Notes under the pieces: model-generated
Database searches by the model: none
Seen by the model: only the letters and a program-made list of their open reading frames with translations
What the model was told of the DNA's origin: nothing
Shown here: in pieces, positions 15,965-55,300 of the stretch
How positions within the stretch are numbered: the stretch's first letter is position 1
Layout of the letters: each line of letters begins with the position of its first letter
Virus record (IMG/VR): IMGVR_UViG_3300017912_003441
Coordinates: 55,264-119,263 of that record
Length of the DNA stretch: 64,000 bases
From: a virus
Lineage: Duplodnaviria; Caudoviricetes
Strand: one strand, 5' to 3'
Program-made: the position numbers and the translations under genes

Positions 15965-15992
15965 TATAAAAAAAGGTGGCCGAAGCCACCTT
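15965..15992 (-). terminator. cUUCGg terminator, repeat copy 1
   Basis: AAGGTGGCTTCGGCCACCTTTTTTT on the minus strand. Confidence 0.9.
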
Positions 15993-16016
15993 AAAGATTC
16001 TCTCTAGAAAATAACT

Positions 16017-16622
16017 CTATGCGCTCACTGTAGATGTTGTAGAGGTACCATGAGGTACAATAGAAGCATTGAGAATGTCTAATACTTTCATCAAACCTTC
16101 AGGTGGTCCGTCGTCTCTAGCTTCAACATGTACATCGTATTTCGCTGAATTATCAGTCTTACGAGTACTTTCTGATTTACTTTGACTTGATACTGATGCC
16201 TTCATCTCGACACTTACTGGTGAATACCATGCACTGTATGAAACATCTGTACTTACATTAGCGTTGGTTGACGAGCTATCAGTTTGCACTGAGCTTGACT
16301 TTACTTCCATTGTAAAATCTACAGTCGCCTTTTTAACAGAAAGATTAGGAACATTAAGAATAGATAATAACGGTACTGATAATTTATCATCTACTAATTG
16401 GGTCGAACCGTCACTGTTTGTAACTGGAGCTTTAAAACCAAAATCAACAGAACGAGCCGAGACTGCTCCTCCACTTGAACTCGGCTCTGATAAACCTACA
16501 TCGTTAATAAACTGTTGAGTGTGTGTTGATAGTTTGCCTTGCGCTTTCGCTGCAGCTAACAAGGGTTGTCCTATCAAATCGGACATTGGAAGTCCTTTAA
16601 ATTGATCTGCGATACCTGCCAT
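16017..16622 (-). CDS. DUF2589-family protein
   Basis: FKGLPMSDLIGQPLLAAAKAQ...VPLLSILNVPNL...PPEGLMKVLDIL. Confidence 0.8.
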   Translation of the reverse strand: MAGIADQFKGLPMSDLIGQPLLAAAKAQGKLSTHTQQFINDVGLSEPSSSGGAVSARSVDFGFKAPVTNSDGSTQLVDDKLSVPLLSILNVPNLSVKKATVDFTMEVKSSSVQTDSSSTNANVSTDVSYSAWYSPVSVEMKASVSSQSKSESTRKTDNSAKYDVHVEARDDGPPEGLMKVLDILNASIVPHGTSTTSTVSA

Positions 16623-16672: not shown

Positions 16673-17170
16673 CTAAGATGGTAGTTGTTTAATCATCTCT
16701 TGTCGTATGCGAGCTATACCTTCAGGTGGTTCTGTAGAGTCAAGTTTCATTCGGACTTTAGCCATTCGCTTCCCATTAACAGAAGTAACTGCAGCACTAA
16801 TATCATCATTGTCAATATCTTCTAAGTGACCTAGCTCAACTTCAAAATCAATCTCTAACTCTTTAATATTGAGATGATTACCATGAGTTAATGTAATAAG
16901 AGGTACATCTACTTCTACAGGATCTCCATCGTGAGTCGGTAGACTTAACCTAAACAAATTAGGATGACCATCTTTATCAAAGAATCTTTCTAGAAAATGC
17001 TCAACAACCTGCTCGTCTACTTTACGCTGCGCCATAATAGTCGAGCGATAGATAGAACGTACTAACTGATTAAAAGTCTTTGCAGCTTTAGATTTAGTTT
17101 GCTTAGGTTTTGTTCCTCCAAAACCAACACTGCTTTCGTCATCATCTTTACCGTATGAATATTTTGGCAC
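16673..17170 (-). CDS. DUF2589-family protein (second type)
   Basis: VPLITLTHGNHLNIKELEIDFEV...EPPEGIARI. Confidence 0.75.
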   Translation of the reverse strand: MPKYSYGKDDDESSVGFGGTKPKQTKSKAAKTFNQLVRSIYRSTIMAQRKVDEQVVEHFLERFFDKDGHPNLFRLSLPTHDGDPVEVDVPLITLTHGNHLNIKELEIDFEVELGHLEDIDNDDISAAVTSVNGKRMAKVRMKLDSTEPPEGIARIRQEMIKQLPS

Positions 17171-17205
17171 AACATTATTTTAACATAATCCGAATAGTAT
17201 GCAAC

Positions 17206-17243
17206 TATAAAAAAAGGCGGCCGAAGCCACCTTTTGCACACTA
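17206..17243 (-). terminator. cUUCGg terminator, repeat copy 2
   Basis: TATAAAAAAAGGCGGCCGAAGCCACCTTTTGCACACTA. Confidence 0.9.
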
Positions 17244-17266
17244 ATCATATTTTTTGTTTTCTGAGC

Positions 17267-18286
17267 TCATAGTTCTAAGTTTAATCTTTCTATTGTTATA
17301 TTAAACCAATTAGTAGGTTTAGGCTTATTAGTAGGTATTTTTGAAAAGTTTATATTAGGGCTAAACGTTGCGTAACCTGCTTGCTCAGCGTCATTACTAT
17401 TAGCATATTGTTCGTAGTGATTAGGGAGTGGTACCATTAATAAAGGCTTACAGAGGTTAATAGCTTCAGAGCTGGTTTCGAATCCTCCTGTACAGATAAC
17501 ACTTGAACATACTTTCATACGTTGCTGAAATAATTCAGCATCTACATTAAACAATTTAACATTATCTGGCACGTTAATGTGTTCTTTAGTGAGCCTAGTA
17601 AAGCATTCTACTTTAGTATCAGGATATTTTCTAGCCTCATTAAACAAATCTCTTAGCATTCCTTCGTTAATGAGATAACAAAGAATAAAGTCCTCGTTAT
17701 CAGCACTCTTTATATAGGCTTGTTTTCTTAATAAAGGAGGGGATATCGTTATCTTTGCATCAGGAATATCATAATAACTTAATCCGATTTTACACGATCT
17801 AAGAGATGTAGCCCAGTTAAGTATTTTTAGAAATAGCTTTTGAATCTTAAATCCTTCAATCTTAGGGTATGCTGACTGTGTCATACAAAACTGATGACTA
17901 ATACTAACATACTTAGTCTGCCAATTAATCAAAGATGACAAGCCTACAAGTGGGTCATAAAAGTTAACTATAATATCTGGTTTAGTTACTTTAATATGAT
18001 ATAAAATTTTTATCAAAGAGTATATTATTATCGGTAGCTTGATTGTATTATGCAAAAATGTTTTCCATAAAACCACTCTTCCTGTACTATCAAAAATAAA
18101 ATCAAAGCCACTATACGTAAATAATTTGAATTCATCTTTAAAGTATTGAGGTATACCTTTTTTTTTGTTTGGTACAACAGCGCTTACAATTTCATACTCT
18201 TCTTTATTTAAATGTTCTTTAAGAGCGAGCGCTTGCGTTAAATGCCCATTACCTTCTGTACACGCACTTACTAAAATTCTTTTCAT
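17267..18286 (-). CDS. GT-B glycosyltransferase (MJ1255/GT28-like)
   Basis: EGNGHLTQA; TGGFETSSEA..LCKPLLMVP...HYEQYAN. Confidence 0.85.
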   Translation of the reverse strand: MKRILVSACTEGNGHLTQALALKEHLNKEEYEIVSAVVPNKKKGIPQYFKDEFKLFTYSGFDFIFDSTGRVVLWKTFLHNTIKLPIIIYSLIKILYHIKVTKPDIIVNFYDPLVGLSSLINWQTKYVSISHQFCMTQSAYPKIEGFKIQKLFLKILNWATSLRSCKIGLSYYDIPDAKITISPPLLRKQAYIKSADNEDFILCYLINEGMLRDLFNEARKYPDTKVECFTRLTKEHINVPDNVKLFNVDAELFQQRMKVCSSVICTGGFETSSEAINLCKPLLMVPLPNHYEQYANSNDAEQAGYATFSPNINFSKIPTNKPKPTNWFNITIERLNLEL

Positions 18287-18987
18287 AGTTTAATTAATTT
18301 TATTTCACCTTCAGTCGTCTCAATCACGCAAGTATTTGATTCAACAAAATCACCACAATTAACATAATGTATGCTATCTTTTTTATAATCTGCTGGTTTG
18401 TGTATATGACCGGTAATAACACCATTACTTTTACTATTTTTAACAAATTTAAAAACAGCGTCTTCATAATTCGCCATATATTTTACAGCTTCTTTAGCTC
18501 TACTTTTGAGAAATTTACTAAAGCTAAATTTAAACCATCTAGTTATTTTATTAAGAGCTAAGCTTAATTCGTAGAACTTTGCGCCTATAACTTGAATCCA
18601 TTTATGTTTAGTAATAACCCCATCAAATTGATCCCCATGAATAATAATATATTCTCTACCTCTAAGAGTTTTATGATATGCTGTTCTACATATTTTTATG
18701 TCTCCTAGGAAATAACCATCAAAATAAGATAAGAAATCATCATGATTACCCCAGATATATCTAATTTTAACACCCTTTCTAGAGTGTTTTAGTAGCTTTT
18801 GAATAATAGTATTATAGTTCGGATGCCACCTAAAATTATTTCTAAGTAACCAACCATCAATAAAATCTCCTACGATGTATATATACTCACATTCTATATT
18901 TTTAATAAGGTTGAGTATTATTTCGTGATTACTATACTCAGAACCTAAATGGCAATCTGATATGAAAAGGGATCTCACCTTCATCAC
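18283..18987 (-). CDS. metallophosphoesterase, LpxH/PlcP (phospholipase C)-like
   Basis: SDCHLG, VGDFIDGW, GNHD, HGDQFD, GHIH, NCGDFVES motifs. Confidence 0.88.
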   Translation of the reverse strand: MMKVRSLFISDCHLGSEYSNHEIILNLIKNIECEYIYIVGDFIDGWLLRNNFRWHPNYNTIIQKLLKHSRKGVKIRYIWGNHDDFLSYFDGYFLGDIKICRTAYHKTLRGREYIIIHGDQFDGVITKHKWIQVIGAKFYELSLALNKITRWFKFSFSKFLKSRAKEAVKYMANYEDAVFKFVKNSKSNGVITGHIHKPADYKKDSIHYVNCGDFVESNTCVIETTEGEIKLIKL

Positions 18988-19006
18988 TATTATTTATTCA
19001 CTCTTA

Positions 19007-19043
19007 TATAAAAAAGGTGGCCGAAGCCACCTTTAGCACACTA
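19007..19043 (-). terminator. cUUCGg terminator, repeat copy 3
   Basis: TATAAAAAAGGTGGCCGAAGCCACCTTTAGCACACTA. Confidence 0.9.
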
Positions 19044-19108
19044 TCTTCACACGGCAGATTATTCGCCAGGTTTATTACCTTCAATCACCTTATCTAAAAA
19101 TAACTCAA

Positions 19109-19759
19109 TCATTGTTTACTCCAGAGAGCTTCAGCAACATTAGGGAAATGATCTTTAAGGATGCTCTTACACTCCTCTGCTATATCTCTATGCTCCTTCT
19201 GTGTGTTTTCTTCTGTTCTCAAATCAATATAATGTATCCAGCTTCTAATACTTCCTTTCATATACATAGTAGTTTGTGTTGTTAATGGCAACACCATACG
19301 AGCTTGCTCTTTAGCAACTCCTTGTGTGATAAGTTTATCATAAGTCATCATCGCTGTATCTATAGAGTGTTGTACTACGTTCTTAAGTACAGGGTCATCT
19401 ATTACATCCGAACTACTCTGTCTATTAGTCTCTGCTTTAGATCTTAATTCGATTGGCTCTATTTCTGTCGCAGCGCTATAACGTTGAGAGAATTCTTGAA
19501 AAGAAAAGCTCCTGTGTCTTAATATTTGCGCTGCAATTGCTCTTGATGTTTTGATCTCTACACACATATCAACCATTTCAAATGGTGACCAATGTTTATG
19601 CTTTATTAGAAACTTAAGCAGCCTAGGAGCTGTTTGTGCGTTGTTTTGATTTTCTGGGTTACTTACTCGAGCACAATATGCAATTAAGTCTTCAGGGAAA
19701 CCAGTTGCTTCATGATCGAACGGCTGGGTGAGTGATATAAGTTTAACTTTGTTATTCAT
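19109..19759 (-). CDS. thyX: flavin-dependent thymidylate synthase
   Basis: RHRSFSFQEFSQRY motif; HWSPFE. Confidence 0.96.
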   Translation of the reverse strand: MNNKVKLISLTQPFDHEATGFPEDLIAYCARVSNPENQNNAQTAPRLLKFLIKHKHWSPFEMVDMCVEIKTSRAIAAQILRHRSFSFQEFSQRYSAATEIEPIELRSKAETNRQSSSDVIDDPVLKNVVQHSIDTAMMTYDKLITQGVAKEQARMVLPLTTQTTMYMKGSIRSWIHYIDLRTEENTQKEHRDIAEECKSILKDHFPNVAEALWSKQ

Positions 19760-19810: not shown

Positions 19811-20005
19811 ATGGTTAATAGACCACAGTGGCCTTTGAATAGCGAGGTGCTTAGAAACTATACTCTTTATATGGAAAACGAACTTGGACATAATTATTTG
19901 AATACTTCATTTACTGGAGCGACTACGGCTGAGAATCCACAAGTACAAGAACAAGATACTGAACAAGAGGAGTGTTGCGGTAGCGGGTGTGGGTGCCATG
20001 ATTAG
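19811..20005 (+). CDS. small peptide with C-terminal CCGSGCGCH motif (start may be 19871)
   Basis: ORF track; ATAAATA upstream. Confidence 0.55.
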   Translation: MVNRPQWPLNSEVLRNYTLYMENELGHNYLNTSFTGATTAENPQVQEQDTEQEECCGSGCGCHD

Positions 20006-20421
20006 ATTATATCCACTTGGATATTATTTTTACGTAGAAAGTCGATACCATCGGTAATTCTATACGCTTCAGCGCAAACAACTCTCTTTATCTCTGCTTG
20101 AACAATTAACTTAGCACAATCAAAGCATGGGCTCAGAGTTAAATAGATTGTGCTACCTTTACTACTGTTCGCGCCTTTAGCTAGTTTCATTAAAGCATTA
20201 GACTCAGCGTGTAATACTTCTCGCTTTGTCGTTAAAACCCCTGATACAAAATGCTCACACTCATTATCAAACCCTGAAGGAGTGCCATTATACCCATCGG
20301 AAATAATTTGACCATCTTTAACAACTAGACAGCCTACCTTCTTACGAGTAGCCTTTGATAGATTAGCCCATACAGCGGCCATCCTCAAATAAGTTTTATC
20401 TAATTCTAACTGACTAGGCAT
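20002..20421 (-). CDS. dCMP deaminase
   Basis: GYNGTP, HAESNA, SPCFDCAK; start moved to MPSQ. Confidence 0.93.
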   Translation of the reverse strand: MPSQLELDKTYLRMAAVWANLSKATRKKVGCLVVKDGQIISDGYNGTPSGFDNECEHFVSGVLTTKREVLHAESNALMKLAKGANSSKGSTIYLTLSPCFDCAKLIVQAEIKRVVCAEAYRITDGIDFLRKNNIQVDII

Positions 20422-21151
20422 TCCAAAGTTGTAGTTGTTTGTGTAAGTTTCCTTGATACTTGTGACGACCAATATGAACTAAATTAGTATCTGTAGCGCA
20501 GTAGATCTCTCCACCACATTCTTTCCATAGCTGACAAAATCCATAATCTTCACTCTCATACTTCTTCGTCTTAGGATTAACTCTCACTGAGAAGAAGTCA
20601 TAGAAATTATCACCTGCTCCCATATAAAAATCAATATCATTTTTGTACTTTAAGTCTGGTCGAGCTTTAATTATTGTCTCAAATACTGATCTATGTATCA
20701 ACATAAAACCAGTAGCACCATAATTTACTTTGATAACTTTATCTAATTTAGTACCTGCAGGTATCTCTGTACTAAAGTCTGTAGAATAACTTTCCCAGTC
20801 TTTATCTAAAGATTGTTTACGTTTAATGTAGTCTTCAATCTTTTCTTTTCTAAGATACTTCTTACAATAAGCTCCTATTGCTAATGGCTTCTTTACCTTT
20901 GCGACCTCATTAAAGTCATTTGGTTCAAAGGCCATGTCAGTATCAACAAAGAGCATATAGTCACAATCAGATTTTAAGAAGAAAGCTGCAGCACTATTTC
21001 GACCTCTACTGATTAAGCTCTCTGCTGTTATGGGGTGGAATATTGCTGCATATCTTCTGCTTTGGAGCGAATGCTGAAGCTTCATCATACTCATCATGAA
21101 CTCAGCATGAACCTGACCTCCGTATGCTATTATTGGTATGAATATCCTCAC
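20414..21151 (-). CDS. GT-A (GT2-like) glycosyltransferase
   Basis: SLISRGRN, LFVDTD, GATGFMLI, SEDYGFC. Confidence 0.85.
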   Translation of the reverse strand: MRIFIPIIAYGGQVHAEFMMSMMKLQHSLQSRRYAAIFHPITAESLISRGRNSAAAFFLKSDCDYMLFVDTDMAFEPNDFNEVAKVKKPLAIGAYCKKYLRKEKIEDYIKRKQSLDKDWESYSTDFSTEIPAGTKLDKVIKVNYGATGFMLIHRSVFETIIKARPDLKYKNDIDFYMGAGDNFYDFFSVRVNPKTKKYESEDYGFCQLWKECGGEIYCATDTNLVHIGRHKYQGNLHKQLQLWNA

Positions 21152-22133: not shown

Positions 22134-22313
22134 CTAAATTAAAGTCGTCGCAGCGCCACCCGCGATACGATAACCCTCTAGTTGGTTATCCAGTGTAAGA
22201 TGTCTTACCATCCCTGTCCAGCATCGACCAGTCTGGGTCGCTTCTCTGTATCTAGATTCGAGATCGTTGGCAATGGAGGCGTTGTACTCACCGACTATTA
22301 AATTCTTTATCAT
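22134..22313 (-). CDS. hypothetical protein (59 aa, not in ORF track)
   Basis: ATGA-coupled to the upstream gene; MIKNLIVGEYNASIANDLESRY... Confidence 0.6.
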   Translation of the reverse strand: MIKNLIVGEYNASIANDLESRYREATQTGRCWTGMVRHLTLDNQLEGYRIAGGAATTLI

Positions 22314-22753
22314 ACGGGCCAGTAATATTCTAGATTATCTGGAGTAGAAGGCCATAACTTTCTGTACCAGCTACTATCTTTTTGAGTCAACATACTACGA
22401 TGAGACTCATGAAGCTTATGAATACCTAACCACGGAGGAAATACTAACTGTTTCGAATGATCATAAAGAGCAGATATTTTCTCGTAACAAGTATCTTTGT
22501 AGCCGCGTTCTTTCCAAGCCTTACATACTGCTTGACCATAATAAACTAATGCGTTAGCATAGTCATGTTTACCTTTAAGGTACCACATTTTACGACATGG
22601 ATGATTCTTCCAGCCTCTATACGGTCTATCTTCTTTCGATGCTTTGATAGAGTTAAGCAATTGAAGTACTTCTACTCTCTGCTTACCTAGACGCTTCTGG
22701 TCTAATACCTTCGCACTCTGATAGAAATTGTTATATGGTAGAAACGTTTGCAT
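22310..22753 (-). CDS. pyrimidine-dimer DNA glycosylase (DenV/MSMEG_6728-like)
   Basis: MQTFLPY...LDQKRLGKQRVE...HP...HESHRS. Confidence 0.88.
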   Translation of the reverse strand: MQTFLPYNNFYQSAKVLDQKRLGKQRVEVLQLLNSIKASKEDRPYRGWKNHPCRKMWYLKGKHDYANALVYYGQAVCKAWKERGYKDTCYEKISALYDHSKQLVFPPWLGIHKLHESHRSMLTQKDSSWYRKLWPSTPDNLEYYWPV

Positions 22754-52300: not shown

Positions 52301-55300
52301 TAATGCTTGTCTACCAATAGCAACTAGTTGCGCTCCAGTTGTGTTGTCATATAAAGCAGCATAACCAACTCCGGTGTTATAATTAGCTGTTGTGTTACAT
52401 TGCAAGGTAGCGTAACCAAGTGCTACGTTACCTATACCGGTTGTGTTATACAACATAGAATGTGTACCGACTGTGGTGTTATAACTACCAGTAGTAGTAC
52501 ATCTAGCAGCTCGATAACCACTTGCAGTATTATTACAAGCTGTTGTTTGCATTTGGAGAGAACCATATCCAGTTGCAGTATTTCTTAAACCAGTTGTGTT
52601 GGATGCTAGAGCTAAACCACCAACTGCGGTGTTACATGCTCCTGTTGTATTAGCAAATAAAGAACAACCACCAACTGCTGTGTTAAAGCTTGCTGTTGTG
52701 TTGTTGTATAAAGATAACCTACCAACTGACGTGTTAAGAGTACCAGTAGTATTGTTTTGTAGCGCTGATGTACCAAACGCAGCATTGTCTGCAGCTGTAG
52801 TATTTTTATATAAAGAATATGTACCGCTAGCAGTATTGTTCGAACCTGTAGTATTGTTGGAAAGAGCAGATCGACCAACGGCGACGTTATTAGCCCCTGT
52901 TGTGTTTGCAAGCATCGCTAAGCTACCGGCTGCAGTATTCTTAGAGCCTATAGTGGTTAACTTTAATGATTGATAACCAACCGCGACGTTATTATCTCCA
53001 CAAGTACTAGTCGTAAGAGCCTGATAACCAACTGCAACGTTATTAGCACCTGTTGTATTAGCAAATAAAGAACAACCACCAACCGCTGTATTAAAACAAG
53101 CTGTTGTATTTGAACAGAGAGCTGAACTACCAAGTGCAACATTTTGACAACCTGTTGTATTATCTTCTAAAGCTAGCACACCAAACGCAGCGTTACAACC
53201 ACCAGTTGTATTCAATCGCAATGCTTTATAACCACTAGCAGTATTATACGCACCGGTGGTGTTAGAACATAAAGTATGAAAACCAACTGCTGTGTTATAA
53301 GAAGCTGTAGTGTTACAATATAAAGCACTACCGCCAACTGCAACATTACAAGCACCTGTTGTGTTACATTTCATTGATGCTTCACCAAACGCAGTATTTA
53401 CATTAGCAGTAGTATTCGCATACAAAGCATACGCTCCGCTAGCTGTGTTTTGACAGCCAGAAGAGTTACAAAACAAAGCTGCAAATCCAACTGCTGAATT
53501 CCATCTACCAGTCGTATTATACCTTAACGCAGCTCGACCTAACGCTACATTTTTGCAACCTGTTGTATTAGCGTATAGAGCATCTTGACCTACACTTGCG
53601 TTGTCACAACCACTAGTATTTGAACGCAAAGCGCTTGTACCTATTGCGACGTTATACAGACCTGTTGTTAGACCGTTTAATGCGCATGTACCGAACTTAG
53701 CATTAGCATTTTCATCACTACAATAACCACCATTAGCGCTAACATAACCACTCAATGTAAGATTACCTGCTAAGTCAATATTGTCATTAAAATCTATTGC
53801 AGTACCACCTGTAACTGAATTAAATGCATCAGCATAGACTGTACCACTTGCACTAATATTACCTGAAACTGTAAGCTTTTCATTTGGATCAGTTGTTCCT
53901 ATACCAACTTTACCGTCGGATACGACTGTCATTATGCTATCAGCGATTACAGCATTAGCTGCATTAGCGCCATTATCTAACGCAAAATGCATTTTTCCAC
54001 GGGCGTAAACATCTTGACTTTCGTATATTATGGCTCCTTTTTGATAAGTACCTCCAGTGTAACCAAACTGAATACCTAAATAGGTACCGGGGGTACCTAT
54101 ATTATTTGCTTGTAGGGAAACCGGGAAATAATCGCCAGATGTCCTATATAACGTTAATTGATTCGATGGATTGTTAGTACCTATACCAACATTACCACCA
54201 TCTTCAATATAGAAAGCAGATGTACCATCATCTTGAAAATCTACTAGAGGTTGGGAACCTGTCTGATTTAACTCTAATGCAGGACCTGTACCAGCATTAC
54301 ATATACACATTGCCTCTGTAGCAGTAACTGTTGTGTTTAATGTTGTACATGTTCCATGTACTATAAGATTACCAGCAATAGTAGCATCTCCTGTTGAGTG
54401 CAAACAACCACCACATACTTTTGTACAACCAACAACGTTACCTGCGGTTTGTATAACACTACCACAACTTACTATATTACCACAATTGCATATAAGATTA
54501 GTAGCACATATATTATTTGCTGTTAGATCCCCAGTTAAAGTAACATCATCATTAAATGTAATCTCACTACCACCAGTAATAGAATTAAATGCATCAGCAT
54601 AGACTGTACCACTTGCACTAATATTACCTGAAACTGTAAGCTTCTCATTTGGATCGGTTGTTCCTATTCCAACATTACCAGCGCTTAATATATTAAGATT
54701 ACTATTGTTTAGTCCATTACACTGACCTAAAGAAGCAACCCCATTAGATGCATTAATATAAGCATTGGTAGTAGAGTCATTAATTAGTATTCTACCACCG
54801 GCATCTGAACTAGAAAACTTACTTATAATATCATCAGAAGTATATACATGTAAACTCTTGCCTGGAATAGTAGTACCTATACCAACATGACCACCATCTT
54901 GAATAAACATTTCAGTGGTACTACCACCGTCTGTAGAAAATATTATACCTTCATTTGTAGCATTAGGATTAGCTAATATTCTTAAACTTTCATTAGTTGG
55001 TCCAATAATATCTCTCGCACCCCCGTCTCCTAGTCTAATGTTTCCATCAACTTCAAGTAGTTCAGTTGGATTAGTAGTACCTATACCAACATTACCATCC
55101 CCGTTAATTGTTAAACGATCGGTAGTACCTAAACCATTATTTCTAGCAATTTTAAACTTATCTCCATCACTATTATCAATACCAATAGTGTAAGATCTAC
55201 CACTTATATTAAAATGTAAAGAAGCATCTCCAGAAGAACTATTTTGCAATAGAGCTGTTGGGGTTGCATCTGTGTCTGAATTAACTACTACTAATTTATT

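Follow-up and report, generated by a model that had tools for sequence, protein, structure and literature searches.

Bacterial PlcP-Agt operons, in which the gene of a PlcP-type phospholipase C is followed by the gene of the glycosyltransferase Agt, have been described in diverse species, the examples being S. meliloti SMc00171, Phaeobacter MED193_17359, SAR11 HTCC7211 PB7211_983/960, P. aeruginosa PA3219-PA3218, and B. cenocepacia BCAL2364-2365. The role of PA3219 in glycolipid formation is established experimentally (PMC8528852). In F. johnsoniae, phosphate depletion strongly induces both PlcP and a PF04101 transferase encoded in the phoBR operon, and the two were filed under lipid remodelling (PMC8115612). 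Here, we analyse a two-gene cassette encoding a metallophosphoesterase (hereinafter, the esterase) and a GT-B glycosyltransferase (the transferase) in 64,000 nucleotides of virus DNA (Duplodnaviria; Caudoviricetes). This whole stretch, referred to as the window, is the second half (positions 55,264 to 119,263) of the 119,263-bp IMG/VR virus record IMGVR_UViG_3300017912_003441, which is 59% complete according to CheckV. We consider it probable (approximately 0.6) that the cassette serves membrane-lipid renovation, that is, turns phospholipid into glycolipid and releases lipid phosphorus in infection. Bacteria are known to have systems of this kind, and the new features are the carriage by a phage, the different family of the transferase, and the breadth of its occurrence in viral contigs.

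Both open reading frames are situated on the minus strand, where a preliminary description of this DNA had placed them. The cassette resembles the PlcP-Agt operon in the clade of the esterase (37% identity, clade-specific residues, a core with an insertion), in the gene order, with the esterase preceding a coupled GT-B enzyme, and in the predicted chemistry. It differs in being located in a lytic T4-like phage, in having a phage motif in place of the Pho box, and in the lack of dagK. The transferases also differ: Agt is a retaining enzyme of the GT4 family, whereas the phage enzyme is of the PF13528/TIGR00661 type, GT1/GT28-like and probably inverting, hence one would expect another anomer, and possibly another sugar, than in the product of Agt. 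The closest cellular counterpart is an operon of Bacteroidota and Verrucomicrobiota formed by a plcP-like gene and a gene of a TIGR00661-type transferase (P. distasonis WP_154395874/WP_005868473), where both genes are homologous to the phage ones and have the same order and the same strand. However, identity is limited to ~30-42%, the proteins of the phage have 233 and 339 amino acids (aa), fewer than the cellular ones (~255-290 and 370-385 aa), and the viral clade is distinct.

The esterase and its relation to LpxH

The preliminary description had proposed a PlcP-like enzyme, with modification of lipid A or lipopolysaccharide (LPS) as the alternative. All motifs quoted there were found, as IVGDFIDGW (residues 38-46), IHGDQFDG (116-123), and VNCGDFVESN (209-218). 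The metallophosphoesterase set is full (D11-x-H13, G40-D41, G80-N81-H82-D83, H117, G193-H194-x-H196) and invariant in 29 homologues, and all seven metal ligands are present. Pfam sees only general metallophosphoesterase families in this protein (Metallophos, 46.4 bits, cut-off 21.5).

The reference proteins were identified by gene context, PA3219 by the overlapping downstream agt1 and cyaB, and the orthologue of S. meliloti SMc00171 by the sinR/sinI neighbours; the true LpxH references came from E. coli K-12, A. baumannii, and five beta- and gammaproteobacterial genomes holding both paralogues. In tblastn comparisons, the esterase is 37.5% identical to PA3219 (E 4e-45) and 37% identical to the SMc00171 orthologue (E 4e-44), vs. 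25% for true LpxH (E 1e-5); the LpxH chains from the PDB match it only at E ~1e-4. Both LpxH models are failed, with 54.8 bits for NF003743 (cut-off 134) and 35.6 bits for TIGR01854 (cut-off 190.35). In the five genomes with two paralogues, TIGR01854 yields 195-345 bits for true LpxH and 30-39 bits for the Agt-linked PlcP paralogue, the phage esterase thus falling in the low range.

The same tendency is observed for individual residues. The third block of the esterase is GNHD, as in LpxH2, and not GNRD, as in LpxH; GHIH corresponds to GHTH of LpxH, and Y208/N210 to R/V (all six LpxH sequences have R, T, and R/V at these sites). In a 93-row alignment, we selected positions with a conservation of 90% or more among the PlcP-side sequences and another residue in LpxH (n = 13). 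The esterase is in the PlcP state at all of them: G15, D44, W54, H82, D122, Y139, S155, K161, K165, I195, Y208, N210, and E216. The LpxH residues opposite H82, I195, Y208, and N210 are, respectively, R, T, R, and V, and K161 and K165 lie in the helical insertion. It is known that His of the third block, retained in LpxH2, is replaced by Arg in LpxH, and that P. aeruginosa LpxH2 (PA3219), a member of the same clade as the phage protein, fails to complement an E. coli lpxH mutant (PMC3087551).

In the final esterase tree, from which one LpxH row (L182) was left out, 92 rows, including the window esterase, PA3219, the SMc00171 orthologue, and every row of viral origin, lie on one side of a branch 2.3 substitutions per site long (99 in the Shimodaira-Hasegawa-like approximate likelihood ratio test, SH-aLRT), with LpxH and a second LpxH-like paralogue of Bacteroidota on the other side. 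Thus, in the phylogeny that the preliminary description had suggested as a check, the esterase falls into one group with the two characterised PlcPs and outside LpxH; the opposite outcome, clustering with true LpxH, is not seen. Two other trees agree with this placement, and one of them contains a distinct viral clade (support 95*) comprising 33 viral or unplaced metagenome rows. Against this assignment, the approximately unbiased (AU) test does not reject a tree where the window esterase is joined to the LpxH branch (delta lnL, the difference in log-likelihood, 11.7; p 0.24), nor one where it is forced together with the second Bacteroidota paralogue (p 0.09). Hence the root inside the PlcP clade is unsettled, and the argument that the esterase is bracketed by characterised PlcPs is not robust and was dropped. 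We read the unrejected AU tests as uncertain attachment of very long branches and not as a sign of LpxH identity.

The AlphaFold2 model of the esterase has a core with predicted local distance difference test (pLDDT) values above 90 and a flexible, low-confidence helical insertion (residues ~120-175; 20% F/W/Y). All 25 best PDB matches listed by Foldseek for this model are LpxH, the only solved relative with an insertion domain; PlcP, too, has both the core and the insertion. The esterase and LpxH (PDB 5B49, 5K8K, 6PH9, 8QJZ), its best structural match, have in common the metallophosphoesterase core, the seven metal ligands, and the helical lipid-binding insertion, but the phage protein is a paralogue and not an orthologue, with GNRD, GHTH, and other substrate-binding residues on the LpxH side. 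Judged from the predicted model, the fold matches show a common architecture and not a common substrate, and a structural study of P. aeruginosa LpxH came to the same conclusion for PaLpxH2 (PMC5016852).

If the cassette comprised true LpxH and an LPS or lipid A glycosyltransferase, it would boost or alter the lipid A of the host. Such a pair would agree with the database name of the esterase relatives (UDP-2,3-diacylglucosamine pyrophosphatase in both JGI and GenBank), with LpxH being the sole solved structural relative, and with the AU test, which cannot fix the joining point of the LpxH branch. Yet it is contradicted by both failed LpxH models, by GNHD, GHIH, and Y208/N210, by the lower identity to LpxH than to PlcP, by the lack of complementation by LpxH2, and by the transferase, which matches neither LpxB nor, at the required score, MurG (see below); we consider it very improbable. 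As the residues, scores, identities, and trees are all on the PlcP side, the esterase is, to the extent that sequence can tell, a well-supported PlcP-type phospholipase C and not LpxH, and the lipid A/LPS alternative of the preliminary description is not supported.

Some observations concern lipid A synthesis in the cellular holders of the pair. Each of five Bacteroidota genomes with the pair (G145, G046, G013, G274, G006; loci L222-L225, L229) has the second LpxH-like paralogue elsewhere; it features GNHD and GH[S/R]H, A-D-x-H as the first motif, and a clade of its own. LpxI was not found in the three of these five genomes that were searched, and the second paralogue is a candidate UDP-diacylglucosamine hydrolase of Bacteroidota lipid A synthesis. 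Both tested Verrucomicrobiota genomes holding the pair have LpxI, hence the esterase of the pair is dispensable for lipid A synthesis there. The transferase-linked esterase is not an obvious lipid A enzyme in either Bacteroidota or Verrucomicrobiota.

The transferase and the partners of the esterase in cells and viruses

That the second gene encodes a GT-B enzyme, as stated earlier, agrees with the confident AlphaFold2 model (pLDDT 92.7) with two Rossmann-like domains. The protein matches the Pfam families Glyco_trans_1_3 (PF13528; 82.2 bits, cut-off 25) and Glyco_tran_28_C (28.3 bits, cut-off 22), and its relatives are labelled as the TIGR00661 family by JGI. The fold is similar to those of B. 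subtilis YojK (VIA-align Z 23.5), MurG (23.3), sterol glucosyltransferase UGT51 (23.1), and MGD1, the plant monogalactosyldiacylglycerol (MGDG) synthase (18.3). There are two characteristic motifs, the N-terminal G-x-G-H15, which is invariant, and the C-terminal donor motif GGFETSSEA...H-x-EQ; H15, E274, H290, E292, and Q293 are retained in all 37 transferase sequences, and in a profile search the counterparts of the two motifs in YojK/YjiC are the catalytic histidine and the UDP-sugar motifs. To the GT1/GT28-like class belong MurG, sterol glucosyltransferase, and MGD1, whose acceptors are lipophilic. Because of the GT1/GT28-like fold and the motifs aligned to YojK/YjiC, the transferase most likely is an inverting UDP-sugar enzyme, with a lipophilic acceptor.

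Several other identities were tried. The MurG equivalog models yield ~21 bits (cut-off 250), and there is no match to LpxB. Agt (GT4) was rejected, as the transferase has no GT4 Pfam match (PF00534/PF13439), and PA3218 in tblastn, while detecting Agt in 50 cellular and ~30 viral loci, misses both the window and the related viral loci L005 and L006. PHROGs has no family for the transferase, neither cassette protein is matched by PADLOC, and a PDB search with the single transferase sequence gives zero matches.

We then considered cellular genomes, one per species, and the 80 loci in them whose products are most similar to the esterase (35-42% identity to the phage protein). In 50 loci, the gene directly downstream is an Agt orthologue (46-73% identical to PA3218), and in five more the slot of Agt is occupied by a transferase of the window type (three Verrucomicrobiota, one Methylomirabilota, one Bacteroidota). 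The latter arrangement is also found in P. distasonis and in one unverified faecal contig. Thus, the suggestion that the esterase has a partner glycosyltransferase finds support in cellular genomes, where the partner mostly is Agt but may be a window-type transferase in the Verrucomicrobiota and Bacteroidota. Window-type transferases are present in 41 of the 301 sampled Bacteroidota genomes, and in 21 of the 30 best Bacteroidota transferase loci, the transferase gene is immediately preceded by a co-directed PlcP-like gene. The neighbours of the Bacteroidota transferase loci without the esterase were searched for phoBR, yielding one histidine kinase, one LytTR pair, and one Exo_endo_phos gene.

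Relatives of the esterase are encoded in at least 571 viral stretches of IMG/VR. We analysed 85 viral loci, six of which are cut off. The gene following the esterase encodes a glycosyltransferase in 52 of them, and these belong to three families (Agt-type GT4, n = 27; GT2/GT21-like, n = 20; window type, n = 5). The tight order of esterase and transferase seen in the window is the same in the viral loci L005, L006, L098, L099, and L100; in another three loci, the gene directly upstream of the esterase encodes a distant relative of the window-type transferase. The viral neighbours include typical T4-like nucleotide-metabolism genes, such as those of ribonucleotide reductase and ThyX or ThyA, as well as SegE homing endonucleases, and PhoH is directly upstream in two loci, L120 and L125.

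The simplest explanation for three transferase families following one esterase clade is that diacylglycerol is their common substrate. Alternatively, the esterase could cut a different lipid- or nucleotide-linked phosphodiester or pyrophosphate, and the transferase could glycosylate a polyprenol-linked sugar, an aminolipid, a sphingolipid, a carotenoid, or a hopanoid. In favour of this, the transferase family is uncharacterised, the solved folds closest to it belong to enzymes whose small lipophilic acceptors are very diverse, the esterase is missing from nine of the 30 Bacteroidota transferase loci, and both aminolipids and sphingolipids are abundant in Bacteroidota membranes. On the other hand, the esterase retains all PlcP-side residues, those of the lipid-binding insertion included, and the same clade is coupled, in cells and viruses alike, to Agt, whose known acceptor is diacylglycerol. 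Together with the three families observed in a single slot, this makes other substrates unlikely.

Among 50,697 phage records, relatives of the esterase were found only in Pelagibacter phage Mosig, Synechococcus phage S-SRM01, and one unverified faecal contig. In Mosig (L001, MT647606.1, 3903-5738), the gene annotated as "putative UDP-2,3-diacylglucosamine hydrolase" encodes a homologue from the PlcP clade (34% identity); this gene is divergent from the phage pstS gene and has no adjacent transferase. The homologue in S-SRM01 is also a lone one, hence both phages lack the coupled transferase of the cassette. Surveys of accessory genes have filed viral "lpxH" under LPS biosynthesis (PMC10653327, PMC9611531); such entries, if they belong to this esterase clade, should be re-read as PlcP. 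We found no paper on phage-borne PlcP, nor one joining "PlcP" with "auxiliary metabolic". It is possible, although we put it forward only tentatively, that virus-encoded lipid renovation is widespread and overlooked, with many aquatic phages carrying PlcP coupled to a glycosyltransferase from any of three unrelated families (Agt GT4, GT2/GT21-like, PF13528/TIGR00661), stripping phosphorus from the membrane and rebuilding it with glycolipids.

Predicted chemistry and its possible benefit to the phage

If the cassette performs lipid renovation, two steps would be expected. At the first one, well supported by sequence, the PlcP-type, Mn-dependent phospholipase C would cleave phosphatidylethanolamine, phosphatidylglycerol, or phosphatidylcholine of the host, yielding diacylglycerol and a phosphorylated head group. 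At the second step, suggested by the gene context and the fold, the coupled GT1/GT28-like transferase would transfer a sugar from a UDP-sugar to diacylglycerol, producing a phosphorus-free monoglycosyl-diacylglycerol; the linkage is probably beta, since the transferase looks like an inverting GT-B enzyme. The bilayer would be kept, diacylglycerol would not build up, and lipid phosphorus would presumably be freed into the cytoplasm, where it could feed the synthesis of the phage genome. Phosphate mining as the purpose goes beyond the sequence itself, and we infer it.

A ~200-kb genome contains about 4e5 phosphorus atoms, and phospholipids of marine bacteria hold 0.5-2.6e6 (PMC4796936), hence the lipid pool equals roughly one to six phage genomes in phosphorus. 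Phosphorus is limiting for the growth of bacteria and for DNA synthesis of phages over much of the surface ocean. The cassette is similar to the phosphate-stress genes of phages (pstS, phoA, and phoH of cyanophages and pelagiphages; the Mosig homologue) in being a host-derived metabolic gene set in a marine T4-like phage that plausibly eases phosphorus limitation; however, the products of pstS, phoA, and phoH import or signal phosphate, whereas the cassette would recycle an internal pool. If the renovation reading is true, recycling of host membrane phosphorus with the membrane left intact would be a strategy distinct from phosphate import and sensing, which the hitherto known phosphorus genes of phages serve.

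Several observations, in addition to the AU tests described above, weigh against lipid renovation. The TIGR00661 score of the transferase, 108.1 bits, is below the cut-off of 195.9, the protein is at most ~30% identical to any cellular relative, and we found no paper on the PF13528/TIGR00661 family and no demonstrated acceptor for any of its members. PlcP frees phosphorylated head groups and not free phosphate, so that further host enzymes are needed. In Dokdonia, a flavobacterium with plcP, aminolipids were reported to accumulate under phosphorus starvation, and no glycolipids were reported (PMC4796936). There is no Pho box, as the 47 nucleotides (nt) upstream of the cassette hold only a terminator and the phage motif, with no room left; the cassette is likely regulated by the phage programme. 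Finally, pstS and phoH were not found in the 119-kb record, although at 59% completeness this does not show their absence.

The cassette is nearly identical in seawater and other marine metagenomes from 12 studies, 2014 to 2025. In one metatranscriptome assembly, an 898-nt contig covers the whole esterase gene and more contigs fall inside the transferase gene; hardly any contigs fall in thyX and DUF2589 on either side, although all these genes are covered in the DNA run from that sample. We take this as no more than a weak hint that the cassette is transcribed in the sea, as the RNA evidence consists of assembled contigs from one sample and carried-over DNA is possible.

The same chemistry could also bring another benefit, such as an envelope change that prevents superinfection, tuned lysis or late membrane stability, or resistance to membrane-active stress. 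Three papers describe effects of bacterial lipid remodelling on phage adsorption and antimicrobial sensitivity (PMC9938194, PMC9804370, PMC8528852), the promoter motif of the cassette is of the phage type and looks constitutive, with the Pho box missing, and the phage fragment has yielded neither pstS nor phoH. Nevertheless, phage relatives of the esterase gene adjoin pstS (in Mosig) and phoH, and in every characterised bacterium the pathway is in the Pho regulon. These facts are compatible with a second benefit as well, but we regard another benefit in place of phosphorus release as rather unlikely.

If lipid renovation is indeed the function, and as widespread among phages as suggested above, the PF13528/TIGR00661 family would gain its first function, that of a diacylglycerol glycosyltransferase, and infected cells would supply a part of the glycolipid signal in phosphorus-poor seawater. 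A transferase family widespread in Bacteroidota and Verrucomicrobiota thereby gets a testable function.

Boundaries, signals, and surroundings of the cassette

The positions of all features are given in the table. The start of the esterase was set at the ATG codon, since the homologues begin with MKVRSLF. The ATGA overlap of the two genes suggests that their translation is coupled.

Table. Features of the cassette and its surroundings in the window, and viral loci with other transferase types (nt, nucleotides; aa, amino acids)
Feature	Position or loci	Strand	Remarks
PlcP/LpxH2-clade metallophosphoesterase	18283..18984	minus	233 aa; 234 aa in the open reading frame listing, from GTG 18987
GT-B glycosyltransferase, PF13528 / TIGR00661 (MJ1255/VC2487) type	17267..18286	minus	339 aa
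ATGA overlap, esterase stop / transferase start	18283..18286	minus	4 nt
ATAAATAATA, cassette copy of the recurring promoter- or leader-like motif	18988..18997	minus	ends 3 nt 5' of ATG 18984; 3' of the upstream terminator
(A)TAAATAAT(T) motif	upstream of starts 6390, 9908, 12285, 13148, 16622, 18984, 24394, 43219, 56374, 58616, and others		ends 3-10 nt before most of the starts
Intrinsic-terminator hairpin AAAGGTGGCTTCGGCCACCTTT and T run	19013..19034	minus	closes the upstream thyX unit; 5' edge of the cassette
Second hairpin copy, 1 mismatch, and T run	17212..17235	minus	32 nt past the transferase stop; 3' edge of the cassette
Third hairpin copy	15972-15993	minus	
ThyX	19109-19759		upstream of the cassette
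dCMP deaminase	20002-20472		upstream of the cassette
phrog_1574 glycosyltransferase-like gene	20414-21151		upstream of the cassette
DenV-type pyrimidine-dimer glycosylase	22310-22753		upstream of the cassette
Two tandem DUF2589 paralogues	16017-16622, 16673-17170	minus	directly past the terminator of the cassette
Viral loci with Agt-type transferase	L104, L106, L111-L117, L120, L122-L126, L139, L142, L145, L151-L159, L163, L174		GT4 35-45% identical to PA3218
Viral loci with GT2/GT21-like transferase	L103, L118, L119, L124, L127-L130, L134, L148-L152, L165-L172, L176		

The preliminary description had noted the motif ATAAATAA in front of the cassette. It is indeed present (18990-18997, minus strand), but the bare 8-mer is not enriched in the window (12 copies vs. 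11 expected). The longer form, TAAATAATT, is enriched, with 13 copies vs. 3.7 expected, a number reached in none of 100 shuffles, and TAAATAAT or ATAAATA occurs at most 30 nt upstream of 12 out of 55 start codons, vs. 0.4% of random windows. As the longer form is enriched and concentrated near start codons, this motif is a real recurring promoter- or leader-like signal of the phage, and one of its copies belongs to the cassette. The copy at start 56374 is ~30 nt away from the start codon, unlike most others.

The terminator hairpin is present in three copies, vs. none expected by chance. The copies have similar flanks (GCACACTA, plus strand), and two of them bracket the cassette exactly; these repeats may mark the boundaries of the cassette or recombination sites. 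Its own promoter-like signal and its own terminator give the cassette the anatomy of a moron, and by these predicted signals it is an accessory two-gene transcription unit of the phage. The cassette also moves as a unit: the viral locus L006 has just these two genes in common with the window over 12.7 kb, and metagenome contigs are ~98% identical to the window over 16866-19094, followed by unrelated sequence past 19094. In one DNA metagenome run (X4), a contig joins 17209 to 18266, so that the esterase is kept and the transferase is deleted; the shorter side of this junction is 29 nt, too weak to be used.

The virus is an uncultured marine, deep-branching T4-like myovirus with a gp43-type DNA polymerase, large terminase, tail sheath, and baseplate wedge. 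Its DNA polymerase is ~30% identical at most to that of any isolate, the full genome size is inferred to be roughly 200 kb, and blastn of the cassette against deposited phages yields zero matches. The use of Shine-Dalgarno sequences in the window is not above the background (3 of 55 genes). Together with the spacing of the motif, this points to leaders that are very short and to a host whose initiation is not Shine-Dalgarno-led, e.g. one of the Bacteroidota. The transferase type of the cassette is typical of Bacteroidota as well. The host could not be assigned, but the match of the cassette type to the plcP-plus-TIGR00661-transferase operon of Bacteroidota and Verrucomicrobiota and the absence of Shine-Dalgarno use hint at Bacteroidota.

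Of the neighbouring genes, the phrog_1574 glycosyltransferase-like gene accompanies the cassette also in the viral locus L005, and the first DUF2589 paralogue has a motif of its own, ATAAATAATT.

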